Shown here: piece by piece, positions 25,830 through 41,991 of the stretch
Layout of the letters: each line of letters opens with the position of its first letter
How positions within the stretch are numbered: position 1 is the stretch's first letter
NCBI GenBank assembly: GCA_045656225.1
Contig: JAZOQU010000039.1
Location: forward strand, 523 to 64,522
From: Kiritimatiellia bacterium
GTDB lineage: Bacteria; Verrucomicrobiota; Kiritimatiellia; RFP12; UBA1067
DNA length: 64,000 nucleotides
Direction of reading: 5' to 3'
Made by a program: the position numbers and the translations under genes
Notes under the pieces: generated by a model
Database searches by the model: none
Seen by the model: only the letters and a program-made list of their open reading frames with translations
What the model was told of the DNA's origin: nothing

Positions 25830-26114
25830 ATGTCAACATTATTAAAGGATGCCGATATTCGCCCTATTTCTGATCTTCGCAATCGATTTGCTGAAGTTTC
25901 AGATTATGTGCAAAGTGGAAAGACGATAATTTTCACGAAAAACGGCTATGGATGTATGGTTACAATGAGTTTCGATGCGTACAAGTCGCTTTCGGATCCA
26001 GCGTTAACTGAACTTAAACGAGTTGATGAATTGCTCGAAACCGACAATCGCCATTTTACACGCGAGGAGTCGCTAAATATACTTCGGGAGCGTGCAAATG
26101 CTCGGAGAAAATAA
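25830..26114 (+). CDS. Phd/YefM-family type II antitoxin
   Basis: GGAG RBS. MSTLLKDADIRPISDLRNRFAEVSDYVQSGKTIIFTKNGYGCMVTMSFDAY fits the Phd/YefM fold pattern. Overlaps the downstream toxin ORF. Confidence 0.75.
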   Translation: MSTLLKDADIRPISDLRNRFAEVSDYVQSGKTIIFTKNGYGCMVTMSFDAYKSLSDPALTELKRVDELLETDNRHFTREESLNILRERANARRK

Positions 26115-26412
26115 TTACACACTTGATATCCGACCTACATTCATTGACGAGCTTGACGCAACAGTTCGTTACATTGAGCAGGAATTACAGAATCCAATTG
26201 CGGCGGATAAATTGATCGAACAAACTTACGCGGCGATTGATGAAAGATTGTTTGCTCCTGAATCCTTTGAGCCGTGTTATCGTCCGCCAGATGTTAAACA
26301 ACCGTATTATAGGATTCATGTCGGGAATTTTGAGGTTTATTATATTGTTCGTGATAAAGTTATGGAAGTAAGATGGTTTCGCTATTCTAAAAGCGTTCAA
26401 CCTCTTACGTAA
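26092..26412 (+). CDS. RelE/ParE-family type II toxin
   Basis: 106 aa. C-terminal YYRIHVGNFEVYYIVRDKVMEVRWFRYS is typical of the RelE/ParE fold. 23-nt overlap with the antitoxin. Confidence 0.7.
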   Translation: MQMLGENNYTLDIRPTFIDELDATVRYIEQELQNPIAADKLIEQTYAAIDERLFAPESFEPCYRPPDVKQPYYRIHVGNFEVYYIVRDKVMEVRWFRYSKSVQPLT

Positions 26413-26572
26413 GTGTAGCATAAAATAAACGCGTAAAGTCTAGTCCTCTGCCAATCCTGTGCTAATGCTCTTGTAATACACTTCGTGATTGCTATGATTG
26501 GCTAAGTTAGTGCGCGTCAGTAATACCGTTCCGCAATTTAAGCGAATCGCAGAAATGAGATATAATAATCGT

Positions 26573-26701
26573 ATGAAAACAAATGCGCTTTTGTATGCAG
26601 ATGAAACTTACGAAATCAACCGTTGTATTTATGATATTCTGATAGCGAAGGTATGGTAGAAGATATTGAAACAGGCGATATTTCGCCTATTCAGTTGCAT
26701 T
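26573..26701 (+). repeat. roughly 125-bp direct repeat R125, copy 1 (contains a 28-codon mini-ORF, probable gene remnant)
   Basis: Near-identical to 30600-30723. The ATG..TAG mini-ORF (MKTNALLYADETYEINRCIYDILIAKVW) is frameshifted in copy 2. Confidence 0.8.
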
Positions 26702-26740
26702 AATATTTCTTTTATAGGTTTTGTAACTTTTTTGATTGTT

Positions 26741-27197
26741 TTGCTTGCTCCTGCGGAGCAGACGACTTATATCGATAATTTTTTACTGCGCCTTCGGCGC
26801 GACGACTTATATCGACTTTTATGTGCGCAGGCATTGTGCGGAAGGCTTTAATCTCGTGGCCGGACTTGTCGTCGCTTTTGCTCCGACGCCACGAGATTAA
26901 GCGCCTTATCCTTCCGCACAATGCCTGCGCATTTAGAAGTTAGTTATATTATTAATGAAGTGCATCGCTCGATCAGGAGGATAGGCACTTGCGTTGCGCC
27001 CGTCGCCGCAGGTGACAAGTCCGGGGCGCAACGGAAAGCCTACCGAGCGAGCGATGCACACAAAAGTCGTTCCAAGTCGTCGCGGCGAAGCCGCAGTAAT
27101 AAAAATAAATCTAACCGGCCACGAGATTAAAGCCTTCCTTCCAAGGCTTGCGCCAAAGTCGTTCCAAGTCGTCTGCCGCGTCAGCGGCAAGTAAAAA
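26741..27197. repeat. hairpin-mosaic element E1 (MITE/BIME-like)
   Basis: Terminal inverted modules TT(A/G)CTTGC-hairpin-AGACGACTTATATCGA (x2 at the left end) and AAAGTCGTTCCAAGTCGTC-hairpin-AAGTAAA (x2 at the right end). Long nested hairpins at 26821-26932 and 26979-27044. Confidence 0.8.
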
Positions 27198-27233
27198 CAA
27201 CTTCCTACTTCCCACGTCCTCCCAAAATCGCTA

Positions 27234-27263
27234 TTGCACCGAAAAACTCTAATGTGATATAAT
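27234..27263 (+). promoter_or_regulatory. sigma70-type promoter with extended -10 for the DUF3800 gene
   Basis: TTGCAC, 18 nt spacer, TGaTATAAT. Followed by a GC-rich leader of about 90 nt. Confidence 0.5.
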
Positions 27264-27360
27264 TTGAGGCGACGAAGGCTTAATAGGCTGGGGTCATCGA
27301 GACGCGGAGAAAGTTCTTCGCCTTGAGCGGCGGTGAAAACCGTCGCTCTTGCATTTTAAG

Positions 27361-28053
27361 ATGAATGATAGAAATATACTGAGCATATTTGTCGATGAAT
27401 CTGGGAATTTCTCATTTGAGAAAGAGGCTTCCCGGTTCTATATTGTTTGCTTTGTAATGCATAATCAAAATTCATCTATTGATGAACATGTCAGAAAACT
27501 AGACTCTGATCTTGATCGAATGGGATTCTCGAATCTGTGCTTTCATGCCGGTCCCATAATTCGTCATGAAGATGGGTACGAGTTTATGAACTGGGAATTA
27601 CGCAATCGAATATTCTCAAAGATGATGGCGTTCTATCGCAAGGCAGAATTCTCCTACCATTGTTTTACGGTGGATAAAAAGTTTGTCTCGTCCGAATCGC
27701 AGATTGTAGATCGACTTAAAATAGAAATAAAAGCCTTTCTTGAAGCCCTTCGCATGAACTCTGAAATTGCGCAACATCTGAAGCTGTATTATGATTGTGG
27801 CCAAACGCCAATAACAAACATGCTTCAATCGGCTATGACATCAGTGTATGGCGATGATTGGGAGTTTGCGCAAGATGTAAAGCCCATAAAATACAAGCTT
27901 TTTCAAATAGCAGACTTAATCTGCACAACAACTCTCATTGAGCAGAAAATAGCCAATGGTCTTAAAATGACTAAAAGCGAAGATAAATTTTTTGGTGGTC
28001 CCAGAAATTTCAAGCGCAATGTTCTTAAGGTAATAAAGCGCAAAGAAATCTAA
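27361..28053 (+). CDS. DUF3800 domain protein (paralog 1)
   Basis: N-terminal ILSIFVDESGNFS motif. Clear paralogy to 42376..43071 (FHAGPIIRHEDGYEF / FHAGPLIRREKGYEY, YHCFTVDKKF / YHCLSVDKKY). The ORF is open from a TTG at 27349. Confidence 0.7.
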   Translation: MNDRNILSIFVDESGNFSFEKEASRFYIVCFVMHNQNSSIDEHVRKLDSDLDRMGFSNLCFHAGPIIRHEDGYEFMNWELRNRIFSKMMAFYRKAEFSYHCFTVDKKFVSSESQIVDRLKIEIKAFLEALRMNSEIAQHLKLYYDCGQTPITNMLQSAMTSVYGDDWEFAQDVKPIKYKLFQIADLICTTTLIEQKIANGLKMTKSEDKFFGGPRNFKRNVLKVIKRKEI

Positions 28054-28092
28054 GTATTTCGAGTCTTTTGTTTTCTAACTTTTTTTATTGTA

Positions 28093-28581
28093 TTTACTTG
28101 CGCCTTCGGCGCGACGACTTATATCGACTTTGACGAGCGGAGGAGGAAGGAAGGCTTTACGCCGATGCCCAGACATGTCGCGCAAGTGCGACGGCATCGT
28201 CGTAAGCGCCTTATCCTTCCTTCCTCCTCCGCTCGTTAGAGTATTAATCAAATGTCAATTATTTGTGATTGTGCGACGGATATGCGGATAAATGCGCCGA
28301 AGAGCGAAGCTCGAAGGGAGATACACCTGCACCGAAGGTGTCAGGTCGCCCGACGAGCAACGCGAGGAGCTTTGCGAAGCAAAGTCGCAAGAGGCTGTGC
28401 CGCGCAGACCGAAGGTCGAGCGCACGAGCGTAGCGAAGTGGCCGCAAGGCGCCGCGATCGGCGTTTAATCTCGTGGCGTCGGAGCGAAGCGACGACAAGT
28501 CCGGCCACGAGATTAAAGCCTTCCTTCCAAGGCTTGCGCCAAAGTCGTTCTAAGTCGTCTGCCGCGTCAGCGGCAAGTAAA
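28093..28581. repeat. hairpin-mosaic element E2
   Basis: Same end modules as E1. Forward hairpin 28132-28236 and reverse hairpin 28460-28520. Shares a core with E3 and E4 (GCGCCGAAGAGCGAAGCTCGAAGGGA...), here carrying an insert of about 80 nt. Confidence 0.8.
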
Positions 28582-28703
28582 TAACCTCTTCCCTCTTCCC
28601 ACTTCCCTCTTCCCTTCCAAAAAACCGCGCGAGGGGTGAAAATGCGGCGCTAGCGATGGAAAAGGATGAAGATAGTAATCTATTCGCGCTTCGCTTAGTG
28701 GCG

Positions 28704-28878
28704 GCTCCGCCGTGAGGTAGTGACAAATTGCGCAAGCGCGATTGAAGCGCTGCTGTGCGCTTGTGGCTTAACGCTTTGCGTTGCCACCGCGCCCATTGCC
28801 TCTTAACCCTATCGGGTTTTGTCACTTACCTCAGACACGAAACCCCTTCGGGGACACGAAAATTCACGAAAATGTGGG
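28704..28878 (-). repeat. structured repeat family N, copy N2 (5'-truncated)
   Basis: The reverse complement reads TTTTCGTGAATTTTCGTG-TCCCCGAAGGGG-TTTCGTGTCTGAGGTAAGTGACAAAACCCGATAGGG.... Its internal part is nearly identical to N1. Confidence 0.7.
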
Positions 28879-28986
28879 GGAATGGGGAACTGGGAAGAAA
28901 GACTAAAATATGAAGCGAGAAAAAGTGACTATAGATAGAGGAGATTGGTTGCATTTTTGTCTGAAAAAGCATATACTATTTCCGAC

Positions 28987-29604
28987 ATGAAAGAAAAGGA
29001 TTATTCGGAGAAAATTAGAGAGCGCGTCTCAAAGCTTAGAGATGGCGAACTTGTCGTTATGGTTGATTTTGCCGATATTGCTCCAAATAACACCGTCAAC
29101 AAAATTGTTACGAGACTTGTGGACGAGAATCTTTTGCGTCCTATTATCAGAGGAGTTTATCAAAAGCCGCTGATGAATTCATTTCTTGGCGAGCCAATAG
29201 AACCTACTGGCGAGGCTTTGGCGTTAGCAATAGCTCGAAAGAATGGATGGACGATATGTCCTAATGGAGATACCGCGCTTAATTTGCTTGGTCTTTCTAC
29301 TCAGGTTCCTGCGAATTGGAGTTTTCTTTCGAATGGTCCATATAAAGTATATAAGTTTAGCGGCGGTGAAATTCGCTTTTCTCATACGGCGAATAGATTA
29401 TTAGAGAGTTTATCAAAGGATTCAGTATTTCTAGTACAGGCATTGAGAGCTTTGGGTGAAGAGAGTACAGATGAAGAGACGCTTATGCGCCTATCTCACA
29501 ATATTTCACCTGAACGGATAAATCTAATTGAGGCCGAAACTAGGAATGTTCCAGATTGGATTCGGTCAAAAATTGCGAAATTAAAGGAGATTAAAAATGC
29601 GTAA
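28987..29604 (+). CDS. AbiEi-family (DUF6088-like) type IV antitoxin
   Basis: EKIRERVSKLRDGELVVMVDFADIAPNNTVNKIVTRLVDENLLRPIIRGVYQKP matches the AbiEi/DUF6088 N-terminal pattern. Overlaps the AbiEii gene by 8 nt. The ORF is open from a TTG at 28945. Confidence 0.7.
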   Translation: MKEKDYSEKIRERVSKLRDGELVVMVDFADIAPNNTVNKIVTRLVDENLLRPIIRGVYQKPLMNSFLGEPIEPTGEALALAIARKNGWTICPNGDTALNLLGLSTQVPANWSFLSNGPYKVYKFSGGEIRFSHTANRLLESLSKDSVFLVQALRALGEESTDEETLMRLSHNISPERINLIEAETRNVPDWIRSKIAKLKEIKNA

Positions 29605-30598
29605 TGTTGCAAGAGAAAGCGATGCCAATCTTTATGCGCTTTTTGCGAATACATCGGCTAAGAGTGGATTATCTCCTGCTGTTATAGAAAAGGACTTTTG
29701 GGTTTGTTGGCTACTTGATTACCTTTTCAGTAGATCGCCATGGAAAAATCAATTGGCGTTCAAAGGCGGTACTAGTCTCTCAAAGGCATTTGGTCTTATC
29801 AAACGCTTTTCCGAAGATGTTGACCTTATTCTTGACTGGCGGCTGCTCGGATATGAGAAAGATGAGCCTTGGCAGTCACGCAGCAATACTCAGCAAGACA
29901 TTTTTAATACGAAGGCGAATGAAAAAAGCGCCATATTCTTAAGAGATGTTTTTGCACCGAAACTCCGTGAAGATCTTGCGCGTGATCTTAATCATCCAGT
30001 TGATATCAATATAGACCCGGTAGATCCTAATACGGTTATATTTAATTATCCATGCGCATTTTCGGACGCGTCAATTCTTCGTGAAATACGTATTGAAAGT
30101 GGTAGCCTTGCCGCATGGACACCTGCGCGGCACAAGTCTATTTCACCTTATGCCGCTGAATATTATCCGCATATTTTTAAGCAGGCAGAAACATTGGTGT
30201 TTACGGTTGAGGCTGAACGGACATTTTGGGAGAAGGTTACAATTTTACATCGAGAGGCGATGCGTACAGAACGCCAAGGCCCGATGCCGCCACGTTATTC
30301 TCGGCATTATTATGACTTATGGAGTATGTGCCAAGGCGAAACTAAGGACGCTGCGCTTGCCAAGCTAAATCTTCTTGATGCGGTTGTTGAGTTTAAAAAG
30401 AAATTCTATCGTTGCGCATGGGCTAAGTACGAATTGGCGACTGCGAAGTCAATTTCGTTGATGCCGCCAGCTGCTGCAATCCCATCTTTAGAAGCGGACT
30501 ATCGTCACATGCGTAATATGATATTCGGTGAAACGCCACCATTTGAAGAGATGCTTGACTGTATAGCGAAGCTTGAAGATGAGATTCATAAGTGTTAA
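29597..30598 (+). CDS. AbiEii/AbiGii nucleotidyltransferase toxin (DUF1814)
   Basis: IEKDFWVCWLLDYLF...LAFKGGTSLSKAFGLIKRFSEDVDLIL is the hallmark N-terminal nucleotidyltransferase region. Confidence 0.8.
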   Translation: MRNVARESDANLYALFANTSAKSGLSPAVIEKDFWVCWLLDYLFSRSPWKNQLAFKGGTSLSKAFGLIKRFSEDVDLILDWRLLGYEKDEPWQSRSNTQQDIFNTKANEKSAIFLRDVFAPKLREDLARDLNHPVDINIDPVDPNTVIFNYPCAFSDASILREIRIESGSLAAWTPARHKSISPYAAEYYPHIFKQAETLVFTVEAERTFWEKVTILHREAMRTERQGPMPPRYSRHYYDLWSMCQGETKDAALAKLNLLDAVVEFKKKFYRCAWAKYELATAKSISLMPPAAAIPSLEADYRHMRNMIFGETPPFEEMLDCIAKLEDEIHKC

Positions 30599-30599
30599 T

Positions 30600-30723
30600 A
30601 TGAAAACTAATGCGCTTTTATTTAGCTCAGAAACTTACCAATCGTTGTATTTATGATATTCTGATAGCGAAGGTATGGTAGAAGATATTGAAACAGGCGA
30701 TATCTCGCCTATTCAGTTGCATT
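30600..30723 (+). repeat. direct repeat R125, copy 2
   Basis: Matches 26573-26701. It again sits immediately upstream of an E element. Confidence 0.8.
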
Positions 30724-30736
30724 GATTTTTATTGTA

Positions 30737-31163
30737 TTTACTTGCTCCTTTGTTTTACTTGCTCCTGCGGAGCAGACGACTTATATCGACTTTGACGAGC
30801 GGAGGAGGAAGGAAGGCTTTACGCCGATGCCCGGATATGTCGCGCAAGCGCGACGGCATCGTCGTAAGCGCCTTATCCTTCCTTCCTCCTCCGCTCGTTA
30901 GAGTATTAATCAAATATCAATTATTTATGACTGTGCGACGGATATGCGGATAAATGCGCCGAAGAGCGAAGCTCGAAGGGAAGCCGCGCAGACCGAAGGT
31001 CGAGCGCACGAGCGTAGCGAAGTGGCCGCAAGGCGCCGCGATCGGCGTTTACGACGCGTCCGCCGCCGCAGGCGGCAAGTCTGGGACGCGGCGTAATGCC
31101 GACCGCATATCCGATGCACACAAAAGTCGTTCCAAGTCGTCTGCCGCGTCAGCGGCAAGTAAA
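30737..31163. repeat. hairpin-mosaic element E3
   Basis: End modules as in E1 and E2. Forward hairpin 30794-30898, nearly identical to the one in E2. Reverse hairpin 31044-31100. Long-range stem GTGCGACGGATATGCGG / CCGCATATCCGATGCAC. Confidence 0.8.
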
Positions 31164-31337
31164 ATAAAAAAACCGCGCGAGGGGTAAAAATGCCGCGGTA
31201 GCGATGGGAAAGGGAGAGAAAATAAAAAAAATTAAAAAATATTTTTAAGGGGGTTAAAAGTGCGTTTCACCCCTATTTTTATTGGGTGAGATGGCGATTA
31301 GGGTCTAAGTTCGAAGCAGAAGGGGAGTATACCCCAC

Positions 31338-31367
31338 TTTACAAACAACCCCACAATTCGCTACAAT
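31338..31367 (+). promoter_or_regulatory. sigma70-type promoter candidate for cassette A
   Basis: TTTACA, 18 nt spacer, TACAAT, about 150 nt upstream of the ATG at 31517. It lies outside the proposed invertible segment. Confidence 0.4.
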
Positions 31368-31516
31368 ATAGGTGCTTGGGCGGATAGTCGAAACTCGCGG
31401 TGAGTTTCATCTACCTTGGCGAAAATCGGAACGACGATGAGTTGGCGATCTGGGTATCGTAAATGAATCTGAGTTCTAAACCTAATCGGGCTGGGCCCCG
31501 AGAAAGTGAAAAAGAA

Positions 31517-32287
31517 ATGAAGAAACTTATGTTTGCAGCTACGGCCGCCGTCTGTGCCGCAGTAACGTTCGGATTGGAGTCCGCTAATATTGTAGGTTAT
31601 AGTCAGTCGGATGTTCGTTTGAATTTGTCACAGCAGATGCCGACCTTCGCTAATGTTGGTCAGACTTCTGTTGACATTCAGTCGATGATCCCTGTTGATG
31701 CTGATGGCGAAGTTCTTGACTATGAGTTCACCATTCAGGAAATTTCAGACCTTGGCAAGGTTATCAAGGTGTACGACTACATTCTCGCTGACTCTTCTGA
31801 CGATGGCGAAATGGAAGGCTGGTTGACCTATAATGAAGACGGTGAGCAGGAAGTTGTTGAGCGTAAGTTCGATATTGGCGAGGGCTTCTTGGTTCTTGCT
31901 ACCGCAGCTGGTAAGATGAGTTACTGTGGTGAGGTAGTTATGGGCGAGATTTGTGTTCCTGTTCGTAAGAACCTTTCTGCTCAGGGCAATATCCGTCCTA
32001 TGCCGGTTGATATTCAGACCTTGATTCCCGTTGATGCTGACGGTGAAGTTCTTGACTATGAATTCACCATTCAGGAGACAACTGACCTTGGCAAGGTTAT
32101 CAAGGTGTACGACTACATTCTCGCTGACTCTTCTGACGATGGCGAAATGGAAGGTTGGTTGACCTATAATGAAGATGGCGAGCAGGAAGTCGTTTCTCGC
32201 ACATTTAATGCTGGCGAGGGCTTCTTGATTCTTTCTACGGCTGATGAAGGGTTTCTTAAGTTCCCCGCTATTCAAACCAACAACTAA
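31517..32287 (+). CDS. cassette A gene 1: secreted protein with two tandem repeat domains of about 112 aa
   Basis: Signal peptide MKKLMFAATAAVCAAVTFG, then LESANIVGY. Internal 336-bp tandem duplication (about 31670-31905 and 32006-32241). The ORF is open from 31463. Confidence 0.75.
   Translation: MKKLMFAATAAVCAAVTFGLESANIVGYSQSDVRLNLSQQMPTFANVGQTSVDIQSMIPVDADGEVLDYEFTIQEISDLGKVIKVYDYILADSSDDGEMEGWLTYNEDGEQEVVERKFDIGEGFLVLATAAGKMSYCGEVVMGEICVPVRKNLSAQGNIRPMPVDIQTLIPVDADGEVLDYEFTIQETTDLGKVIKVYDYILADSSDDGEMEGWLTYNEDGEQEVVSRTFNAGEGFLILSTADEGFLKFPAIQTNN
31552..31600. repeat. inverted repeat IR-a, left copy (inside the gene 1 5' coding region)
   Basis: CTGTGCCGCAGTAACGTTCGGATTGGAGTCCGC (33 nt) is a perfect reverse-complement match to 41009-41041. 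Over the full repeat the match is 46/49. Confidence 0.9.
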
Positions 32288-32340
32288 TTTACTACACAGC
32301 ATAGTGTTGTGTGGATAAAACAAAAAAAAGGAAAAATAAA

Positions 32341-32895
32341 ATGAAAAAAATCATGGTAGCAGCAGCAGCGATTGCTATGGCGGTAGTTGCTAATGCGTCA
32401 TCTGTTATCTGGACATGTTCGAACGTGTTCCTCGGCAATGAAACCGACAAGTGCTCGGGTATTGCTTACTTCGTAAATGCAGACTTAATCAGCTCCACTG
32501 CCCTCAAGGCTCTTGGAGACGATGGTGCCGCTGCAATTACAACTGCTCTCGGCAGTTCGTATAGCTTCACCCCTGCCTCCGCTGGTTCTTATGTTAAGAC
32601 AGCTGCTAACGCAGTTTCAGTAGGCACGTTGGGTCTCGCTGATACAACAGCTTACACTGGTTACCTCGTAATCTTCGATGGTGCTACCATCGCTGATTCT
32701 ACGAAGTTCTACACTACTCAGGAGATGGATTTCACCACTCTTGCTGGTGATAACGCCGTTCAGGTTAAGTTCGGTTCTCAGAAGGTCAACTCGACCGACG
32801 CTGGTAATTGGACTGCTGTTGCTCCGGAGCCGACCTCTGGTCTCCTCCTCCTCATTGGCGTTGCTGGCCTCGCTCTCCGTCGCCGTCGCGCCTAA
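32341..32895 (+). CDS. cassette A gene 2: PEP-CTERM sorting-domain protein
   Basis: Signal peptide MKKIMVAAAAIAMAVVANA. C-terminus VAPEPTSGLLLLIGVAGLALRRRRA (PEP motif, TM helix, Arg cluster). Confidence 0.85.
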   Translation: MKKIMVAAAAIAMAVVANASSVIWTCSNVFLGNETDKCSGIAYFVNADLISSTALKALGDDGAAAITTALGSSYSFTPASAGSYVKTAANAVSVGTLGLADTTAYTGYLVIFDGATIADSTKFYTTQEMDFTTLAGDNAVQVKFGSQKVNSTDAGNWTAVAPEPTSGLLLLIGVAGLALRRRRA

Positions 32896-33027
32896 TTGGT
32901 TAGGAGTTAGTAGTTAGGAGTCAGGAGTTAGTAATAAGGAAGTTAAAATTCCATTGTTCAACTTGAACTTCGACTTCGACTCTAACTTAACAAAACGGTA
33001 AGCCCGTCCGATTATTCGGGCGGGCTT
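32821..33027. repeat. inverted repeat IR-b, left copy (PEP-CTERM coding end plus 3' UTR and terminator)
   Basis: Reverse complement of 39576-39781, with about 9 mismatches and 1 indel over about 207 bp by hand count. Includes the terminator hairpin AAGCCCGTCCG-ATTATT-CGGGCGGGCTT. Confidence 0.9.
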
Positions 33028-33048
33028 CAAAATTTTAAGGAGATTATT

Positions 33049-33873
33049 ATGGCTTGGAATCGTTCTATACCAAAACAAGTTAGCCCTAAAAAGAAAATAA
33101 GTCGTTTTCTTCTTTATATTTCGATACTTGGTGTAGTTATTTTGGTTATCTCCTTTTTTATAATGTCGGCATCAGAAGATGTTGTTCTCGAAGAAGACGA
33201 AACATCTTCTACACAAAAAACACCTAAGAAAAAACCCGTAAAACAGGATATTCCTAAGGAATCACTCGAAAGTGATTCTACTGTCGTTGAAACTAACACT
33301 GTAGAAGAAGCGACACCTACAGTAAAAAAAGCCAAACATAGTGGGCGATTTGTTGATGTTTCAAAGGCTATTTTTATTCCACGCAAGGATCCGCCCCGTA
33401 GATTTATCAATGACGCTGAAGAAGATGTCGCTTCACTCTTGGAGGTAATTCCAGGGGAGATGATCGTAGGCGAAATTAATTATCATAAAAAGAATCGATT
33501 TGTTAATAGTTTAAAGCAAGCGTTAGAGAATCCTACTCGTATTGACGAAAACGATTCAGCGTATTCAGTTGAATTAAAAAATTCAGTAAGAGATGTTATT
33601 AACGATTTAGCTCAGCGCATGAGAAAAGGCGAAGATGTCGCCGCGACGATGAAGCAAGCTAGATCAGAATTACAAGACCTAGGAATCTTTAGAATGGAGC
33701 TCCAAAACGAGCTAAAAAACATTCGCAAGACTACAGATGTTACAACAACTGAATATGAAGAATTTGTAGCTGTCGCGAATAAGATGTTAATTGAAAAAGG
33801 TGCAGAACCATTAAAAATTCCAAAAATCGTTTATCATCAATTGAAGTTAAGAGAAGAAAGGAAAGAAAAATGA
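33049..33873 (+). CDS. cassette A gene 3: N-terminally membrane-anchored protein, unknown function
   Basis: AAGGAG RBS. Starts MAWNRS..., followed by the TM helix FLLYISILGVVILVISFFIM. Positional counterpart of 38167..39057 (MGWNGS...). Confidence 0.7.
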   Translation: MAWNRSIPKQVSPKKKISRFLLYISILGVVILVISFFIMSASEDVVLEEDETSSTQKTPKKKPVKQDIPKESLESDSTVVETNTVEEATPTVKKAKHSGRFVDVSKAIFIPRKDPPRRFINDAEEDVASLLEVIPGEMIVGEINYHKKNRFVNSLKQALENPTRIDENDSAYSVELKNSVRDVINDLAQRMRKGEDVAATMKQARSELQDLGIFRMELQNELKNIRKTTDVTTTEYEEFVAVANKMLIEKGAEPLKIPKIVYHQLKLREERKEK

Positions 33874-34700
33874 AATTAGCTGTATATTGCGTTGTTGCCT
33901 TGCTTGGGGTTGCTTCTTTTGCTAAGGATAAAACCCCATTGCATTTGACATCTGCTGAAGAATTTAAGGCTAGGAAAGCTGAATTTGATGCATTGACACC
34001 AGAGCAGAAGAATGAATTCCGTCAGAAAAGAATTGCCTTTCATAAGGAGAAGGCTGGTGGTGTTGTTAGGGATACGCGCGGAATGTCAGGAACGGTATAT
34101 GTAATCAATGCTCAGAAAAATATCTCAACGGATGATGTTAAAAAGCCTGTTGAGTGGTTACAGAACTACTTAAAAGTGCAGTTTAAGGTCATTGATGGCG
34201 CTTATGTTCATAGGGATACGGCTTATTCTTTTAGGCAAAAGAACAAAGCTAATGCTATCATTGTAGTTTATGATGACCCTAAAGAGTCCGCCTCTATTCT
34301 CGTTGCCCCTGAATCCCGTTGGGGTTCTATTAATATAGCTCAATTAGGCACTGACAATCTTGTTGAAAGAACTCAGAAGGAAATTTCAAGAACGATTGCT
34401 TTTGTTTGCGGAGGTATCAGCAGCCAATATCACCCAACACTTGGATCTCACGTAGATTCGCCATCGTTTTTGGATAAGGTTGATGGCTATGATTTACCCG
34501 TAGATATTCTTCTTTCAATTCGTCAATTTCTCCCTCAATTAGGTGTAAGACCATATAGAGACGTAATGTATCGTAAGGCATGTCGTGAAGGCTGGGCTCC
34601 TGCTCCGACAAATGATGTCCAAAAAGCTATTTGGAATGAAATCCACGCTACTCCGAAGAATCCTATGAAGATTGAATTCGATCCTAAGAAAGGTCGATGA
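33870..34700 (+). CDS. cassette A gene 4: secreted protein, unknown function
   Basis: Signal peptide MKLAVYCVVALLGVASFA. The C-terminus EGWAPAPTNDVQKAIWNEIHATPKNPMKIEFDPKKGR is conserved in the paralog at 37298..38149. 4-nt overlaps with both neighbouring genes. Confidence 0.75.
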   Translation: MKLAVYCVVALLGVASFAKDKTPLHLTSAEEFKARKAEFDALTPEQKNEFRQKRIAFHKEKAGGVVRDTRGMSGTVYVINAQKNISTDDVKKPVEWLQNYLKVQFKVIDGAYVHRDTAYSFRQKNKANAIIVVYDDPKESASILVAPESRWGSINIAQLGTDNLVERTQKEISRTIAFVCGGISSQYHPTLGSHVDSPSFLDKVDGYDLPVDILLSIRQFLPQLGVRPYRDVMYRKACREGWAPAPTNDVQKAIWNEIHATPKNPMKIEFDPKKGR

Positions 34701-35488
34701 AATACACCTACGCATATAAGACCTCTGACGGGGTGCGGCATGAAGAAACTATGAATGCCGCATCTCGCGAAGAGGTTTTTACTGCGCTACGAGCCAAGGG
34801 CATAAAGGCGATTAAGGTTGTCGCCGCTGACGGATCTAAAGCCAATGGCGAAGTGCGCGGCATCCGCAAACGAGTAGTTGCAGCGATTGTTATTATCGTT
34901 GCTGTAGCTGTTGGTGCTATCGCTTATTTCGGCGGCTCACAATCTAAAACCGATAGCATTTCAAACACAACCTCTAACCAAAATTCCAATGCTATCGCAG
35001 TCATTGAGAGTCCAACTCAAGACAATGCGAGACGACAGGTTATTGGCGATGTCGCTATAATCGAAAAAGGCATCCGCAACGGATGGAGCGACGTCTTTGA
35101 ACTTGAGGGCGATAGGTTTCTCGCCTCGTTCGCCATCCCTGGCGTAAAGGCAGGTCAGCGTAATACTTCCGAAAAGGAATTCGCAGCAGCGCTTGAGAAT
35201 AAATGCGAGATTAAGCCTAATGACTCAATCGAAGTCAAACAGATAAAAGCGATGGTCGAGGGGATGAAAGACGAGGCTCGCCGTTACATCGCTGCTGGTG
35301 GCTCAATTGTCTCTTATGGTAAAAGACTTACCGAGAGACAAGACGCTGAGATTGCTATTTATGAAAGAATCAAAGCCGATCTCGAAAAGGCTCATTCATC
35401 TATGAGCGAAGATGAATACATGATTTACTGGGAAAAGCGGAATGACGAACTTAGAAATCTTGGGATTAAGACGATTGGGCTGGAGTGA
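34697..35488 (+). CDS. cassette A gene 5: single-pass membrane protein with a GspF/PilC-N-terminus-like motif
   Basis: MKYTYAYKTSDGVRHEETMNAASREEVFTALRAKGIKAIKV resembles the F-Y-A-D-G...A-S...L...G motif of T2SS/T4P platform protein N-termini. One TM helix. Roughly three-quarters identical by eye to 36504..37301. Confidence 0.7.
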   Translation: MKYTYAYKTSDGVRHEETMNAASREEVFTALRAKGIKAIKVVAADGSKANGEVRGIRKRVVAAIVIIVAVAVGAIAYFGGSQSKTDSISNTTSNQNSNAIAVIESPTQDNARRQVIGDVAIIEKGIRNGWSDVFELEGDRFLASFAIPGVKAGQRNTSEKEFAAALENKCEIKPNDSIEVKQIKAMVEGMKDEARRYIAAGGSIVSYGKRLTERQDAEIAIYERIKADLEKAHSSMSEDEYMIYWEKRNDELRNLGIKTIGLE

Positions 35489-35581
35489 GGGGCGGTAGAA
35501 GGTTTTAGGTGAAGGTTAGAGGTGAAGGTGAACAGCGGAATTTGAGATTTTCCCTCTTCCCACTTCCTTTAGTAGTTCTTC

Positions 35582-35803
35582 TTAATCAAAGAGCTCAGGC
35601 TCGTTTTCGATTAGATCTGCCGCAAGGTATTTATAATCAAGATTATCAATACCATAAAGCCCCTCAGCAATTTGGTTGCAAAGGCGACTACGATAATAAA
35701 TGTCAGTAGCAGAGCGAATATCTATCTTACGCATTTTACTTAGCTCGCTAATGATGTCTATAGACAAATCTTGCCGATAAATATCTACCTCTGACTTTTT
35801 CAT
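35582..35803 (-). CDS. small hypothetical protein (possibly DUF3791-like)
   Basis: 73-aa ORF in tandem with the DUF3791-like ORF upstream. Family similarity is weak. Confidence 0.4.
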   Translation of the reverse strand: MKKSEVDIYRQDLSIDIISELSKMRKIDIRSATDIYYRSRLCNQIAEGLYGIDNLDYKYLAADLIENEPELFD

Positions 35804-35895
35804 GTTATTACATCTTAATTATCCGAGATCCAAGCGACCTTTAGCCTTTGTAAGATCTGGGATTTTGACTTCGCAAATACTACCATGGTAAACAG

Positions 35896-36117
35896 TCATG
35901 CGATTTCGTACCCCCAATCCTTGACGCAACCAGTTACATCATCAACAAGATATTCCTTACCTAACGTGTGTAACACATCATAATGGAGAATAAGATAATT
36001 ATCTAAAACTTTGGAATTATTCAAAATAGAATACACCTTCTGCGGGGACATGTGCCATGCCTCCGCAAGGGCGTGAATCATAAAGACCACAAAAACAAGT
36101 ACAGAACGATTAGCCAT
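35896..36117 (-). CDS. DUF3791-like small protein
   Basis: 73 aa. The pattern ...AEAWHMSPQKVYSILNNSKVLDNYLILHYDVLHTLGKEYLVDDV resembles DUF3791 family members. Confidence 0.5.
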   Translation of the reverse strand: MANRSVLVFVVFMIHALAEAWHMSPQKVYSILNNSKVLDNYLILHYDVLHTLGKEYLVDDVTGCVKDWGYEIA

Positions 36118-36243
36118 AAGTTATGTCAACATTATACCAAAAAACTAATTAGATAGGAGCGGAAAAATAAAACCAATAGCGAAGTCTGGGAAAAGAAAAA
36201 CGAGGCATTGCGCTGCCTAAGTAAGACCAAAACTTAAAACTCG

Positions 36244-36486
36244 CTTCGTCAGAATGTACTCAGTGTCTCCAGTGTTGTGCTTTTCGTGTAGCCTCCGAAG
36301 GAGGCGTTTTTGTGTCCCACGAATGTGGGCTTTCGTGTTTGGGAGCGCGGCAAAAGCCGTAGGCTTTAGACGAGACGATGCGCTATGGGTGACGCGTTAA
36401 GCGACAAACCCAATAGCGCATTGGCGAGTCGTTAATCGCGTTAACGATTTGCCGCGCTCACAACTTTCGTGGTCGCGCGGAGCGCC
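36244..36486 (+). repeat. structured repeat family N, copy N3
   Basis: TTTTCGTGTAG-CCTCCGAAGGAGG-CGTTTTTGTG-TCCCACGAATGTGGG-CTTTCGTGTTTGG, then the closing stem GAGCGCGGCAAA/TTTGCCGCGCTC. The architecture is the same as N1 but the stem sequences differ. Confidence 0.7.
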
Positions 36487-36503
36487 ACACTAATCACTAA
36501 TGA

Positions 36504-37301
36504 TTATTCTAGCCCTACCGTCTTAATTCCTAAATTTCTAAGCTCTTCGTTGCGGCGTTCCCAGACGTCCATGAAGTCGTCTTCGTTAAGCGATTCTTTA
36601 GCCTTTTCAATTTCTGACTTTATCCTCTCGTAGATTGCGATTTCTGCGTCTTGGCGTTCTGTTAGGCGCTTACCATAGTCGACGATTGTGCCGCCCGCTG
36701 CGATATATTGCCGCGCTTCGTCTTTCATTCCCTCGACCATCGCTTTAATTTGACGCGCTTCAGGCGAATCGGCAGGGAGGATCTCGCACTTTGAATTTAT
36801 CGCAGCTTCAAATTCTTTAAGCGAAGTGTTGCGCTGACCAGCCTTAACGCCAGGAATCGCGAAGCTCGCTAAGAACCTATCTCCTTCGAGCGCGAAGACA
36901 TCTGCCCACCCAGTGCGAATACCCTTAGCTACGATCGCTTCATCACCGAAAACTTGGCGGCGGGTTTTATCGACATTCGCCAAGTTCGCATAGGGATTAC
37001 TCTCAGCCTTACCTAATGATTCTTTGGCGCTCTCAGGCACGTTGTTTACCGCGCTCTTGCTTCCGCTAAAGTAGGCTGCAACACCTACGCCAAGTGCAAC
37101 AGACGCCACAAGAGCCACAACACCGCGCTTTCTAAGGCCGCGAACCTCTCCGTTAGCTTTAGAGCCGTCAGCAGCGACAACTTTAATCGCTTTTATGCCG
37201 CGTTTACGCAATTCAGCGAACACCTCTTCTCTCGAAGAGGCGTTCATTGTATCTTCATGACGTATTCCGTCACTCGACTTATATGCGTAAGTATATTTCA
37301 T
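36504..37301 (-). CDS. cassette B gene 5 (paralog of 34697..35488)
   Basis: MKYTYAYKSSDGIRHEDTMNASSREEVFAELRKRGIKAIKVVAADGSKANGEVRG.... High identity to the A copy at both termini. Confidence 0.75.
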   Translation of the reverse strand: MKYTYAYKSSDGIRHEDTMNASSREEVFAELRKRGIKAIKVVAADGSKANGEVRGLRKRGVVALVASVALGVGVAAYFSGSKSAVNNVPESAKESLGKAESNPYANLANVDKTRRQVFGDEAIVAKGIRTGWADVFALEGDRFLASFAIPGVKAGQRNTSLKEFEAAINSKCEILPADSPEARQIKAMVEGMKDEARQYIAAGGTIVDYGKRLTERQDAEIAIYERIKSEIEKAKESLNEDDFMDVWERRNEELRNLGIKTVGLE

Positions 37302-38149
37302 CGACCTTTCTTAGGATCGAACTGAATTTTCATTGGATTTTTGGGGGCGGCGCGGACTTCGTCCCAAACAGCCTTTTGGTACTCGTTCGTTGGCTGGGGC
37401 GCCCAGCCTTCCATGACTGCGAGTTTATAGGGGATATGACGCGCTCTTTTAACGCCGAACTTAGCCATTTGAGCGTACATCTTTTGGAAGTTCATAGGCT
37501 GCATAACTTGATAAACGAGCGCGTCGAGTTCCTTAAGATTATAAACTGGCTGAAGTACATCGTTCTTATAGGGCGCGTAACCGATACCGCCTACAAAGCC
37601 AAGCGCTCTCCAAACTTCCTTAATAAGTCTCGTCTCTGGCGCGAGAGGATCATTGCCGCCGAGATAACGCTTAGCATTGATAACTGCGATACGCTCCTCT
37701 GGCATTACGCAAAGACCAGGGCAATCGCCAGATTCAGCGATGAGAATCACATACGCGGCATTATTAGCCTTAAGCGCGGCGAGCGCTTTGGCGTATGGCT
37801 TTTCGTTCGCGTTAAGCTTTGACTTATCAATCTTAATATTCGTCTTAGATAAATCGCCGAATACTTCGGCGAAGCGATCTGCCGCGATGCCGGGCTTTTC
37901 GCGTGTATCAACTACGACTACGCTTACGCCAACTGCCGCGACATCGAGAAAGCCGCCTGTCTTTTTAAGGACTGCCGGGCGATTTTCAAGTTCAGCGCGA
38001 GTTTGCTTTTTATCAGCCTTTTTCTGACCTTCAGCCGCCTTTAGAGCTGCTGCTTCAGCCATCTTTTTAATTTGGTCTTCTTGGGCGTTATTAGCGAGAA
38101 TGGGAGCCGTGATAAGAAGCGCGGCGATTATACTTAGAGTAGCTTTCAT
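37298..38149 (-). CDS. cassette B gene 4 (paralog of 33870..34700)
   Basis: Signal peptide MKATLSIIAALLITAPILA. Conserved C-terminus EGWAPQPTNEYQKAVWDEVRAAPKNPMKIQFDPKKGR. Confidence 0.75.
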   Translation of the reverse strand: MKATLSIIAALLITAPILANNAQEDQIKKMAEAAALKAAEGQKKADKKQTRAELENRPAVLKKTGGFLDVAAVGVSVVVVDTREKPGIAADRFAEVFGDLSKTNIKIDKSKLNANEKPYAKALAALKANNAAYVILIAESGDCPGLCVMPEERIAVINAKRYLGGNDPLAPETRLIKEVWRALGFVGGIGYAPYKNDVLQPVYNLKELDALVYQVMQPMNFQKMYAQMAKFGVKRARHIPYKLAVMEGWAPQPTNEYQKAVWDEVRAAPKNPMKIQFDPKKGR

Positions 38150-38166
38150 ATTGTGAACCTTAATCC

Positions 38167-39057
38167 TTAATTGGAGTCTTTATGAGCGTCAATAATATCG
38201 TTAATGTGTTTAGGAATTTTAGCGTCAGGTAAGCCTAATTCTCTAAACTTTTGATTTAAAGTATCGCGATAGAGCGCGGCGGATTTAGCGTCACCTTTTT
38301 TGAGAAATCCTACAATATCCTTTAAGGTTGACGCGGTTAAGCCCTTTTGAATGGTAGCGGTTTGGCGCATTTCCATTACAAATTCATCGAAGCTCGCGCC
38401 AGTAGTTTCCATATAATCAAGCGCGAGTTCCTTAACTTCAGCGGCGGCTGTCTTTTTGCGGATGACTTCTTCGCTGTCATCGGGGTTAATTGTAACAGGT
38501 TTACGAAGCATTTTCATAACCTCAGCTTTATCTAAGCCCATAAGCATACCAGGGATAAACGATCCGTTTTGAAGATTCATGCCAATAAGATTCTCTTCAA
38601 AGGCGTTGTCGAATACAGGCTTAGGAGTAATATCTACCCAATTACCCTCATGATCACATTTATACACAGCGCCATGAGAGTGTACAGTTCTAAATTCACC
38701 GGGAGCAGGAACGGGGAAGGTTAAAACGCGACCATCGGGCGTTTGCATTGTGCCAGGCTTTTTAACGAATGGGGGCTTTTCCTTTTTTTGCGCGGCAAGG
38801 GGCTTCTCGGTCTTTTTAACGAGATTGGTCGAGGTCTTAGGCGTGGGAACGCGCTTTTTAGGGGTGTCGGTTTGCGCAATGGGCGCGGATTCGGGCTTAG
38901 AGAGGAAGAAATAAAGCACGATGCCGCCAAATAACGCGATAAGGGCGCAGATAGCGTATGGTACAACGCGCAGCTTGCGCGTTGACTTAGGAGTATCATT
39001 TTTCTTGAACGAGCTAGCAGCTCGTTCTACTACTTTATCTGATCCATTCCAACCCAT
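38167..39057 (-). CDS. cassette B gene 3: N-terminally membrane-anchored protein
   Basis: Starts MGWNGS..., with the TM helix VVPYAICALIALFGGIVLYFFL. Same position and topology as 33049..33873 but highly diverged. Confidence 0.7.
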   Translation of the reverse strand: MGWNGSDKVVERAASSFKKNDTPKSTRKLRVVPYAICALIALFGGIVLYFFLSKPESAPIAQTDTPKKRVPTPKTSTNLVKKTEKPLAAQKKEKPPFVKKPGTMQTPDGRVLTFPVPAPGEFRTVHSHGAVYKCDHEGNWVDITPKPVFDNAFEENLIGMNLQNGSFIPGMLMGLDKAEVMKMLRKPVTINPDDSEEVIRKKTAAAEVKELALDYMETTGASFDEFVMEMRQTATIQKGLTASTLKDIVGFLKKGDAKSAALYRDTLNQKFRELGLPDAKIPKHINDIIDAHKDSN

Positions 39058-39076
39058 AAGTTTTCTTTCTGTTTAT

Positions 39077-39563
39077 TTTTACTTGCCGCGTTCCGCGGCA
39101 GACGACTTAGATCGACTTTTATATGCTCCGGACGTACGGTAGGCTTTCCGTTGCGCCCCGGACTTGTCGCCTGCGGCGACGGGCGCAACGCAAACGCCTA
39201 TCCTCCCGTCCGTCCGTCGCATAAAGGAGTTAATTATTACACCTGCGCATGACTTGGAAGGAGATGCGCCGAAGAGCGAAGCTCGAAGGGAAGCCGCGCA
39301 GACCGAAGGTCGAGCGCACGAGCGTAGCGAAGTGGCCGCAAGGCGCCGCGATAAGGCGCTTAATCTCGTGGCGTCGGAGCGAAGCGACGACAAGTCCGGC
39401 CACGAGATTAAAGCCTTCCTTCCAAGGCTTGCGCTAAAGTCGTTCCAAGTCGTCTGCACCGCAGGAGCAAGTAAATCAAAACTAACCAACCACGAGCTTA
39501 AAGCTTCCTTACAAGGCTTGCGCCAAAGTCGTTCCAAGTCGTCGCGCCGTAGGCGCAGTAAAA
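39077..39563. repeat. hairpin-mosaic element E4 (insertion relative to cassette A)
   Basis: Same end modules as E1-E3 (two at the right end). Forward hairpin 39123-39222 and reverse hairpin 39354-39415. It occupies the gene 2 - gene 3 spacer, which in cassette A (33028-33048) is only about 20 bp. Confidence 0.8.
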
Positions 39564-39575
39564 CTTAAAGTTAGA

Positions 39576-39781
39576 AAGCCCGCCCGAATAATCGGACGGG
39601 CTTACCGTTTTGTTTAGTTAGAGTCGAAGTCGAAGTTGAAGTCGAACAATGGAATTTAACTTCCTTATTACTAACTCCTGACTCCTAACTACTAACTCCT
39701 AACCTATTAGGCGCGGCGGCGACGGAGAGCGAGGCCAGCAACGCCAAGGAGGAGGAGAAGACCAGAGGTCGGCTCCGGAGC
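39576..39781. repeat. inverted repeat IR-b, right copy
   Basis: See 32821-33027. Confidence 0.9.
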
Positions 39782-40228
39782 AACCTCGAAGCTGTTGTTC
39801 GCGAGGTTGGTAGCCTGATTGCCGAAACCGAAGGTCTTGGACTGCGAGTCGTTCTCCATCATGATGGAAGCGACAGACGTGACCGAAGCAGAGGTGCCAT
39901 CAGCGCCCCAGATAACGGCGAAAGCCTGATAGGTGTCCGTACCGCTGCCGCTGTAAGTGATAGTCTTGCCAGAGGTAGCAGCAGAGGCATTAGCCATACC
40001 GGTATTGCCAACCGTACCATTTGCGAACGCATAGGCAGAAGTGTCAGTACCAGCAGCAACGAGAGCGGTGATCTGATCAACAGATGTAACACCGTTCTGA
40101 CCGATTACGTAAACAGAGTAATCGCTGTTTTTGTAAGCGGTAGCACCCATCATCGACCAACCGACAGCAGCCGCGTTAGCCATCGCAGCCATCGCAACGG
40201 CGGCTACGAGAATCATGATTTTCTTCAT
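39707..40228 (-). CDS. cassette B gene 2: PEP-CTERM sorting-domain protein
   Basis: MKKIMILVAAVAMAAMANA signal peptide. C-terminus VAPEPTSGLLLLLGVAGLALRRRRA. The ORF is open from 40306. Confidence 0.85.
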   Translation of the reverse strand: MKKIMILVAAVAMAAMANAAAVGWSMMGATAYKNSDYSVYVIGQNGVTSVDQITALVAAGTDTSAYAFANGTVGNTGMANASAATSGKTITYSGSGTDTYQAFAVIWGADGTSASVTSVASIMMENDSQSKTFGFGNQATNLANNSFEVAPEPTSGLLLLLGVAGLALRRRRA

Positions 40229-41124: not shown

Positions 41125-41991
41125 ATGACACCGACTATTGCGCAAGTAATAAAATGCTACAAAATAATCGCTGATATTGAGCGGGCGAAGACTGGGCGGC
41201 CTGGGGAAGGGACGAAGAAAAATGTCTTGAGAGGTACGGTTGCTGTTTGTAATGCTGCCGGGATAGCGTTGAGCGATAGTGTTGAGGTGTTGACGCGAAG
41301 GGCGATAGATAGGGCGCTAGCTGATTTTATGGTTCGGGGAATGACGCGGCTTTCGGCGTGGAGCTATATTTGTAAATTAAGGGGGCTTTTCGCTAAATGG
41401 TGTCTGCCATATTATAAGGACGCTGGGTGGGAAATACCGAAGTTGGAGTTGCCGGTGTTTCGAGCGCAGGCGCCGCGTTATATTAGACCGTCGAGCGAGT
41501 TGTTGGCAAGGGTTAAAAACTGGTACAGGTTGCAGAAGGGCGAGTATTGGTTCGCGGCGACGATGATGCTCGAGTTCGCTATGAGAAATGGAGATGTATT
41601 AAGGCTTACGGATTCTAATTTTGTTGAGAATGATAATGGTAAGTTTTTGTCGTATACGCCGCATAAAACTGAACTTACGTCTGCGCGGCGGGTTTATTGG
41701 CCGATCCATCCAGAGATATGGCAGAAGTTCGAGGATTATGGGCGATTAGCGGGACTGGATGTTACGAATGAGACATTCGAGGACATAAATCGCGATTTAC
41801 GGAATCTTGGATTTCACGGCTCAAAGGCAGCGTATGAATTGCGCAAGATTTGTATCGACCATATCTATCAGAAGTTTGGTGCAGAAATGGCAGTATCTAT
41901 CTCAGGTGATGACATCCGCACCATTACGAAATATTACGCCGACCCCGCCCAACCGAATATCGGAGCGGTTAGGGTCTTGGATTTGCTTTAA
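41125..41991 (+). CDS. tyrosine recombinase-like protein (divergent family member)
   Basis: 288 aa. Box I-like MRNGDVLRL. The segment HKTELTSARRVYWPIHPE resembles the Lys-containing beta-hairpin. Box II-like AYELRKICIDH, with Tyr in place of the first His. C-terminal ISGDDIRTITKYY provides a candidate nucleophile Tyr. It is divergently oriented, 84 bp from IR-a. Confidence 0.55.
   Translation: MTPTIAQVIKCYKIIADIERAKTGRPGEGTKKNVLRGTVAVCNAAGIALSDSVEVLTRRAIDRALADFMVRGMTRLSAWSYICKLRGLFAKWCLPYYKDAGWEIPKLELPVFRAQAPRYIRPSSELLARVKNWYRLQKGEYWFAATMMLEFAMRNGDVLRLTDSNFVENDNGKFLSYTPHKTELTSARRVYWPIHPEIWQKFEDYGRLAGLDVTNETFEDINRDLRNLGFHGSKAAYELRKICIDHIYQKFGAEMAVSISGDDIRTITKYYADPAQPNIGAVRVLDLL

Follow-up and report, generated by a model that had tools for sequence, protein, structure and literature searches.

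The 64,000-nt window analyzed here (the whole stretch from position 523 to 64,522 of contig JAZOQU010000039.1, genome G000, Kiritimatiellia bacterium assembly GCA_045656225.1) contains four palindromic repeat elements, E1 to E4, each carrying one forward and one reverse copy of a long hairpin as an inverted pair, together with the remnants of a gene for a GxxExxY/PDDEXK_3 family protein and, further downstream, a gene for a divergent tyrosine recombinase-like protein (Table 1). The eight hairpins are genuine and structurally constrained, and the elements that contain them belong to a previously undescribed family, which occurs in gut Kiritimatiellae genomes and metagenomes. A preliminary description of the window had reported the hairpins, had considered them as possible attC-like sites of a recombination system run by the recombinase encoded at 41125, and had overlooked the GxxExxY/PDDEXK_3 gene that travels with them, of which the window retains just two deletion remnants, to the left of E1 and of E3.

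Table 1 Coordinates of the repeat elements, their modules and the associated genes in the window
Feature	Position	Strand	Remarks
GxxExxY/PDDEXK_3 pseudogene 1 with promoter-like region	26435..26703	+	ATG 26573; 5' part to ~26637; 3' part 26638-26703, out of frame
Promoter-like site	26471-26498		upstream of pseudogene 1
Element E1	26736..27196		
E1 two left ends	26736-26775, 26779-26819		
E1 forward alpha hairpin	26821-26932		
E1 reverse gamma hairpin	26961-27059		
E1 right end	27063-27103		
E1 half alpha hairpin	27115-27153		
E1 second right end	27155-27196		
Element E2	28088..28582		
E2 left end	28088-28131		
E2 forward beta hairpin	28132-28236		
E2 GC-rich dispersed module	28252-28458		
E2 reverse alpha hairpin	28456-28539		without the 3' half of the outer stem
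E2 right end	28541-28582		
GxxExxY pseudogene 2	30600..30725	+	ATG 30600, directly after the AbiEii stop; same deletion breakpoints as pseudogene 1
Element E3	30750..31164		
E3 left end	30750-30793		
E3 forward beta hairpin	30794-30898		
E3 GC-rich module	30954-31042		
E3 reverse delta hairpin	31040-31115		
E3 right end	31123-31164		
Element E4	39076..39563		
E4 left end	39076-39119		
E4 forward gamma hairpin	39123-39222		
E4 GC-rich module	39264-39352		
E4 reverse alpha hairpin	39348-39434		
E4 right end	39436-39477		
E4 89-nt tandem repeat of half hairpin and right end	39480-39563		
P0001, divergent protein of predicted tyrosine-recombinase fold	41125..41991	+	from structure prediction; context only, loosely linked to the hairpins

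Architecture and covariation of the hairpins

Each E element consists of two inverted half-elements with their ends pointing outward. A half-element is about 150 nt long and reads TTTAC, a small GC hairpin, GACGACTTnnnnCGACTTT with two CGACTT repeats 10 nt apart, and a three-tier hairpin of 65-110 nt; the repeat word between the small GNA-loop hairpin and the three-tier hairpin is CGACTTnnnnCGACTT. The ends (~45 nt) form terminal inverted repeats that are 85-90% complementary. The three-tier hairpin combines outer and lower stems with an inner stem of 13 bp; it further has a conserved bulge of 7 nt (CCGGAYWTG) and, at the top, a hairpin that GTCG/CGAC closes. In the 34 ends that were tabulated, the loop of the end hairpin is a C-GNA-G triloop in 21, GNNA in 7 and of another type in 6, and it always lies on the strand reading outward from the element, while the stems vary. 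PMC13037366 describes GCGNAGC and GCGNNAGC as DNA mini-hairpin motifs of extraordinary stability that occur in single-strand initiation (ssi) sites, among them the phage G4 origin and RSF1010 ssiA.

All eight hairpins were found where they had first been placed, one forward and one reverse per element, and each of them folds as single-stranded DNA (ssDNA) better than shuffled sequence. With 200 dinucleotide-preserving shuffles per hairpin as the reference, the ssDNA-fold z-scores were -11.5, -9.6, -9.0 and -7.1 for the forward hairpins of E1 to E4, and -5.7, -3.9, -4.0 and -3.8 for the reverse hairpins at 26979-27044, 28460-28520, 31044-31100 and 39354-39415. Minimum free energies (MFEs) ranged from -24 to -47.5 kcal/mol, and for none of the eight did any shuffle fold as well as the native sequence (0/200 each). 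The variant scheme given before (E1 alpha plus gamma, E2 beta plus alpha, E3 beta plus delta, E4 gamma plus alpha) proved correct, and with it the mosaic distribution of variants between elements.

Some structural details had to be revised. What had been called a conserved asymmetric internal loop is mostly a covarying 5-bp lower stem, AAGGC/GCCTT, with a 1x2 internal loop above this stem and a 3' bulge of 4-6 nt below it. The E2 forward and E3 reverse hairpins, said to align base for base except in the inner stem, do differ there by three compensated pairs, and further differences lie in the top hairpin and in the lower stem. Moreover, the variable outer stem given as part of the common architecture is incomplete in the reverse copies R2, R3 and R4, where a dispersed GC-rich module stands in place of its 3' half. 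This module is full of CGAAG mini-hairpin words and, besides its three occurrences in the window, is present on contigs C49, C7, C50 and C19 of G000; at the metagenomic locus L238 a similar module sits at the hairpin apex, between GTCGAC and GTCGAC. Just outside right ends in the window, at 25745-25766, 27199-27220, 28586-28607 and 35547-35568, there are pyrimidine tracts made of CTTCCC-like hexamers (GGGAAY on the opposite strand); such tracts also occur beside the minimal element of genome G017 (L188 518-667).

Covariation was assessed on a core structure of 24 pairs, comprising the 5-bp lower stem, the 1x2 loop, the 13-bp inner stem, the 7-nt 5' bulge and a 6-bp top stem. For the copies of the window and its near relatives (13 copies), 90.8% of the cells were paired, compared with 72.9% after shuffling; 13 of the 24 pairs had changed on both sides and none on one side only, and the covariation score (0.393 versus 0.131 shuffled) was reached by 0 of 500 shuffles. 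Across 36 distinct copies from 12 genomes of the genus, 91.8% of the cells were paired (72.5% shuffled), with 15 of the 24 pairs changed on both sides. The corresponding values for 65 distinct copies from metagenome contigs were 93.1% (75.1% shuffled) and 17 of 24 pairs, with a covariation score of 0.387 versus 0.098 shuffled, again reached by 0 of 500 shuffles. The 36-copy and 65-copy alignments were fitted to a covariance model, which biases them towards the structure. As a control, the 3' partners were slid by 1-3 columns, whereupon pairing fell to 30-48% in all three sets, which argues that the covariation signal is real despite the fitted alignments. The preliminary description had named a loss of covariation in alignments of more copies as a refuting outcome; this did not occur, covariation being strong on both larger sets. 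In total, the 95 distinct copies fall into 30 distinct 5'-arm types and keep the same asymmetric features throughout: the bulge of 7 nt, the 1x2 loop and one position that is mismatched as C·T or C·C. The idea of a conserved structure with variable stem sequence and fixed unpaired bases, drawn from the eight window copies, is thus borne out in the genus and in metagenomes.

Dispersal of the elements and their link to a GxxExxY gene

A search with the covariance model of the hairpin core found 12 hairpins in G000, on only two contigs: eight on C39, in the window, and four on C30, in two elements near the contig end. Within the genus, 17 of 117 genomes gave matches at E<=0.01, 12 of them strong, and genome G086 carries nine hairpins over five contigs. 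One scan of metagenomes with an end-plus-hairpin pattern identified 56 loci with 83 hairpins (65 distinct), arranged as 24 inverted doublets and 35 unpaired copies. Twelve of the unpaired copies lie less than 200 nt from a contig end, and 23 have at least 400 nt of room; single halves are common outside the window. L100 and L072 are minimal forms, in which two ends occur without a large hairpin. A pattern scan of genome contigs with GACGACTTNNNNCGACTTT returned 119 stretches, nearly all of them chance matches, with only L072, L093 and L100, from Kiritimatiellae metagenome-assembled genomes (MAGs), being related. The sole case of end pairs more than 1 kb apart, G022:C213, had no gene inside.

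Several comparisons indicate insertion and dispersal of the elements as discrete units. E4 is an insertion of ~490 bp relative to the paralogous junction 33039/33049, bounded by TTTTAC...GTAAAA, in a single case involving paralogues rather than alleles. The halves of E4 and of E5, which lies on C30, are 92-94% identical on two contigs with unrelated flanks. In other genomes, elements are located between housekeeping and accessory genes (AAA_14/DUF4143, DUF3800, Schlafen AlbA_2, Fic, Cas1/Cas2).

In related loci, a gene of 150-155 aa recurs beside the elements. Its product matches PF13366 (PDDEXK_3) at 1e-33 and TIGR04256 (GxxExxY) with 97-110 bits against a cut-off of 35. By tblastn, the gene or a remnant of it was detected within ±1.5 kb in 12 of the 56 metagenome loci, and in 10 of these it is at least 72% identical to the element-linked type; it also adjoins elements in G084:C1, G055:C18 and G062:C17. 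The gene keeps to one of two fixed layouts. In layout (a), an end-hairpin-end unit is followed after 8-14 nt by the gene and then by a hairpin-end unit, with the stop codon of the gene inside the outer stem; in layout (b), a whole doublet (end-hairpin-hairpin-end) follows the gene. Loci L248 and L258 are 86% identical over a span of ~790 bp that begins 196 nt upstream of the gene, at one outer end, and stops 125 nt downstream of it, at the other; the similarity does not extend further. A gene-bearing element would be expected to look like this. A search of 319 genomes of the order that used just the protein as query, so as not to select through the hairpin, yielded four genes with at least 70% identity, three of which adjoin canonical elements. 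The fourth belongs to genome G178, from a different family, and is flanked by diverged but recognizable counterparts of the ends and hairpin: its flanks hold TTTTTTAC, a small hairpin, GACGAGGGGAACGG and weak matches to the hairpin model (14-16 bits).

The tblastn matches within the window, at 26605-26700 and 30588-30722, correspond to two pseudogenes that are the same internal-deletion derivative, retaining the promoter-like region, the first 22 and the last 21 codons. Pseudogene 1 aligns with the intact gene of G084:C1 except for an internal deletion of ~320 nt. Since the breakpoints in both pseudogenes are identical, the crippled unit must have been duplicated together with its element. The window elements are best read as gene-less or deleted-gene derivatives that were duplicated and recombined into a mosaic array among toxin-antitoxin and DUF3800 genes.

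The element-linked protein is predicted to have a PD-(D/E)XK nuclease fold. Its AlphaFold2 model has a mean predicted local distance difference test (pLDDT) score of 88.6, and the best structural matches were the PD-(D/E)XK nucleases Cas4 SSO0001, RecE, lambda exonuclease, AdnAB and Hjc, at low template modelling (TM) scores of 0.33-0.5. D72, E82 and K84 are invariant in 24 GxxExxY sequences, so that the D..ExK motif is kept. A sequence search of the PDB with the protein gave no match, and the literature on GxxExxY, PDDEXK_3/PF13366 and Kiritimatiellia integrons yielded nothing that describes such elements.

Other members of the protein family have repeats of their own. The sole intact PDDEXK_3 gene of G000, at C62:343-660, belongs to an AT-rich subfamily and lies between two direct repeats of ~270 nt. 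Other GxxExxY paralogues, at loci L264-L291 in other genomes of the genus, are 31-49% identical and have two to four copies of (A/T)TYCGTG immediately downstream of the stop codon, as direct repeats at a spacing of 10-11 nt; in L268, L273, L274, L275 and L282 other long hairpins also follow the gene (MFE -60 to -69 kcal/mol over 240 nt).

Readings of the hairpins as DNA or RNA structures

Our reading is that the palindromic repeat elements of gut Kiritimatiellae contain the hairpins as structural modules, that full-length copies carry the GxxExxY gene, and that the hairpins are cis sites of the encoded nuclease, a proposal to which we give an even chance of being correct as a whole. In the mechanism envisaged, the hairpins would fold in DNA, as single strands or cruciforms, and the folded forms would be recognized by their shape and their fixed unpaired bases; under such recognition the stems would be free to drift through compensated changes. 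The element's own nuclease would then use the hairpins as cis sites when the element is copied, moved or maintained. We infer a small selfish element whose nuclease would read its hairpins as folded DNA. The more specific claim, that the hairpin and end modules together with the GxxExxY gene constitute a new small mobile or selfish element in which a minimal PD-(D/E)XK nuclease reads covarying DNA hairpins by shape, is tentative and on balance doubtful.

Folding at the DNA level is suggested by the composition of the pairs. Of the 2218 cells scored as paired over the 95 distinct copies, Watson-Crick pairs make up 2029, G·T or T·G 23 and A·C or C·A 16; most of the others are C·T, T·C or C·C and fall at three fixed positions. 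G·T is therefore no commoner than A·C, whereas a structure selected in RNA on one strand should tolerate G·U far better, and pairing in DNA is thus favoured. The wobble counts, the loops of DNA mini-hairpin type that keep to one defined strand, and the co-occurrence of the two orientations in each doublet are together suggestive of DNA-level pairing, not decisive.

Several points weigh against the proposal. The absence of a wobble preference rests on 39 mismatched cells in model-fitted alignments, and layout (a) places a hairpin in the would-be 3' end of the GxxExxY mRNA, where a role in RNA is conceivable. No GxxExxY gene or remnant was found nearby in 44 of the 56 metagenome loci, and in G000 no element-linked gene is intact, the single PF13366 gene of this genome (on C62) being of a different subfamily. 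In PMC3424549, the function of PDDEXK_3 is listed as 'Unknown', and no activity is known for any GxxExxY protein. Target-site duplications were unreadable at all boundaries examined, which lie in A/T runs. The copy number does not exceed 12 hairpins per genome, which lends no support to recent bursts of movement. Finally, all genomes are incomplete MAGs whose assemblies are broken by repeats.

The main rival of the folded-DNA proposal is a role in RNA, in which the hairpins or ends act in transcripts as 3'-end stabilizers or RNase III-type processing sites of GxxExxY and neighbouring mRNAs. Such a system would resemble the ORF-bearing intervening sequences of 23S rRNA, and a 23S_rRNA_IVP gene is indeed present in a related island. 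In layout (a), the stop codon within the outer stem means that the hairpin would be transcribed, and the GNA loops are on the sense strand of the gene; the deleted gene and E1 have a promoter-like site ahead of them; and single half-elements point to a co-oriented downstream gene in 8 of 9 cases (binomial p 0.02). However, G·U is not preferred over A·C (23 versus 16 cells), and both orientations occur in every doublet, so that no single sense is kept. The hairpins also lack a downstream U-tract and match no Rfam family: a scan of the window gave 0 matches at the gathering score, and below it there were just spurious ones to miRNA-hairpin models, at 25-31 bits against cut-offs of 60-105. On this evidence we regard a role in RNA as unlikely.

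Alternatively, the hairpins could be functionless palindromic debris, decaying remnants shuffled by homologous recombination, in which the arms are kept complementary by intrastrand template switching and not by selection. Decay and shuffling are evident in places. The reverse copy of E6, on C30, combines a delta 5' arm with a beta 3' arm that are unable to pair, and L150 and L151 have similar chimeric arms; half hairpins broken at the apex occur at 27115 and 39480; E1 and E3 share their flanks as well as the identical gene deletion, as segmental duplication would produce; and the low copy number agrees with decay. Nevertheless, template switching would erase the asymmetric features that stay fixed across the 95 distinct copies and 30 arm types, and in a different family of the order the orthologous gene has homologues on its flanks that are diverged yet still recognizable. 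We therefore hold debris to be quite improbable as the general explanation.

The protein encoded at 41125 does have a tyrosine-recombinase fold, as far as its AlphaFold2 model (mean pLDDT 91.6) can tell: the best Foldseek matches were Tn1549 Int, XerH, Cre, lambda Int and IntI (2a3v), at probability 1.0 and over both domains. R154, K181 and Y271 are invariant in its family and R240 nearly so, with the catalytic roles assigned by eye. The protein has no sequence match in Pfam, NCBIfam or the PDB, and one homologue matches Pfam weakly (E 9.6e-4). The family comprises 784 proteins at E<=0.001, all unnamed, and is present in 36 of the 117 genomes of the genus.

That this recombinase uses the hairpins as attC-like folded sites for cassette capture, as the preliminary description had raised, is very improbable. 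Three co-oriented cassettes in the window each have an element after them, homologues of the recombinase lie 1.6-5.4 kb from an element in G000, G086:C24, G084:C1 and G017:C62, and the recombinase occurs in 7 of the 12 hairpin genomes compared with 29 of the 105 others (Fisher p 0.036, although related genomes are not independent). Yet 20 of 21 loci with recombinase homologues hold no hairpin in the surrounding DNA examined, no att-like direct repeat joins the elements to the recombinase gene, solitary elements lie far from any cassette array, and the recombinase adjoins inverted sets of PEP-CTERM and 'A' genes more regularly. The boxes of attC sites follow the consensus R'' RYYYAAC and R' GTTRRRY. 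Neither box could be read in the hairpin sequences, whose foot is AAGGC.../...GCCTTATCC with no conserved GTT on either strand, and the sites are paired and inverted, with single halves also occurring; these are not integron sites. In the assembly, which is 92.7% complete, the best match to the IntI model TIGR02249 scored 72.8 bits against a cut-off of 265, and lay on other contigs.

Ordinary intrinsic transcription terminators are the least credible candidates: the hairpins are GC-rich, intergenic and located after genes, but their stems lack T-runs, the 6 terminator sites called in 6.6 kb include none in the hairpins or ends of the elements, and a 110-nt hairpin with conserved bulges far exceeds what a terminator needs; this identity is disfavoured.

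Relation to known systems and the surrounding island

The elements share features with several known systems. Like attC sites, which are recognized as folded ssDNA, the hairpins are imperfect, with conserved structure, free sequence and fixed unpaired bases, and they occur beside toxin-antitoxin and small accessory genes. In contrast to attC sites, they lack the R''/R' consensus and form inverted pairs inside inverted-end elements, not one site per cassette; no IntI scored above the cut-off in the assembly, and the linked gene encodes a predicted PD-(D/E)XK protein and not a tyrosine recombinase. The doublets formed by repetitive extragenic palindromic (REP) sequences, REPINs, are associated with REP-associated tyrosine transposases (RAYTs) and likewise consist of palindromic singlets and inverted doublets with co-evolving arms and presumed recognition as hairpin DNA. 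The units described here are 150 nt long and three-tiered, compared with ~25 nt for REP units, and are not beside Y1_Tnp genes. The Y1_Tnp matches of G000 on C33 and C19 have no hairpins and are flanked by a different palindrome, unlike in a REPIN/RAYT system. As a mobilizer, Y1_Tnp was rejected too: 84 of the 117 genomes have it, among them every one of the 12 with hairpins (Fisher p 0.015), yet in no case does it adjoin a hairpin. The other palindrome, GGGGAC[AT]GTCCCC, has 28 sites genome-wide where ~2.5 are expected and flanks a Y1_Tnp-like gene on both sides (C33:315 and C33:1767) in a REP/RAYT-like arrangement; in G086 it flanks two hairpin elements.

Similar to miniature inverted-repeat transposable elements (MITEs) and their parent insertion sequences, the elements have inverted ends, are discretely inserted, and comprise gene-less copies that outnumber gene-bearing ones as well as a longer version with the same ends and one gene. 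That longer version is the ~790-bp unit of L248 and L258, in which the GxxExxY protein is a candidate mover. Unlike in MITEs, the gene is not of a known transposase family, no target duplication could be read in the A/T runs at the boundaries, and the internal hairpins covary rather than mirror each other. The ends of IS200/IS605 elements also have subterminal hairpins with unpaired bases that are read on ssDNA, and in IS608 a TTAC-like word stands beside the hairpin, as it does here; however, the present ends are inverted, on different strands, and no TnpA/Y1 gene lies inside. Finally, C-GNA-G mini-hairpins on one defined strand recall the ssi signals and origins of phage G4 and RSF1010 ssiA (GCGAAGC/CCGAAGG; PMC13037366), which are phage and plasmid replication signals, whereas no replicon context was seen here.

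The island around the elements lies downstream of rpsB-tsf and contains Phd/ParE and AbiEi/AbiEii pairs, two DUF3800 genes and one DUF3791 gene (window 25638-26412, 27349-28053, 28945-30598, 42376-43125 and 35896-36117). Relatives share tsf, not the DNA beyond it; in them, tsf and the sulfatase gene are on different contigs. Three genes per strand, for proteins of 263-296 aa, form facing paralogous sets at 33049-35488 (+) and 36504-39057 (-), without Pfam or NCBIfam matches, and an inverted repeat of 76% identity links 34587-34784 to 37214-37411. Intergenic repeat families at 43540-44190 and 25300-25750 are common to many contigs of related genomes (72-98% identity) and probably cause the contig breaks around such islands.

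Near the recombinase gene, window positions 31463-33039 and 39564-41041 hold inverted paralogous gene pairs, each consisting of an 'A' gene of no assigned function and a PEP-CTERM 'B' gene. At their 3' ends, a 224-nt stretch (32818-33039 versus 39564-39784) is 93-97% complementary, and these inverted repeats bracket a 6.5-kb segment that adjoins the recombinase gene and may be invertible in the manner of a shufflon. A similar inverted set surrounds the recombinase in G086. Because the recombinase adjoins 'A' and PEP-CTERM genes in inverted paralogous sets in both genomes, we suspect that it may be an invertase.

GxxExxY/PDDEXK_3 proteins form a widespread orphan family (PMC3424549), and the fixed physical link to a covarying structured DNA module offers a testable substrate. 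A similar logic may apply across this large family, considering the paralogues with their own spaced repeats and hairpins. The elements border accessory and defence islands and disrupt MAG assembly in a lineage that is common in the ruminant gut. If confirmed, they would represent a third system that reads folded DNA, beside attC sites and IS200/REP hairpins, with a different class of enzyme.

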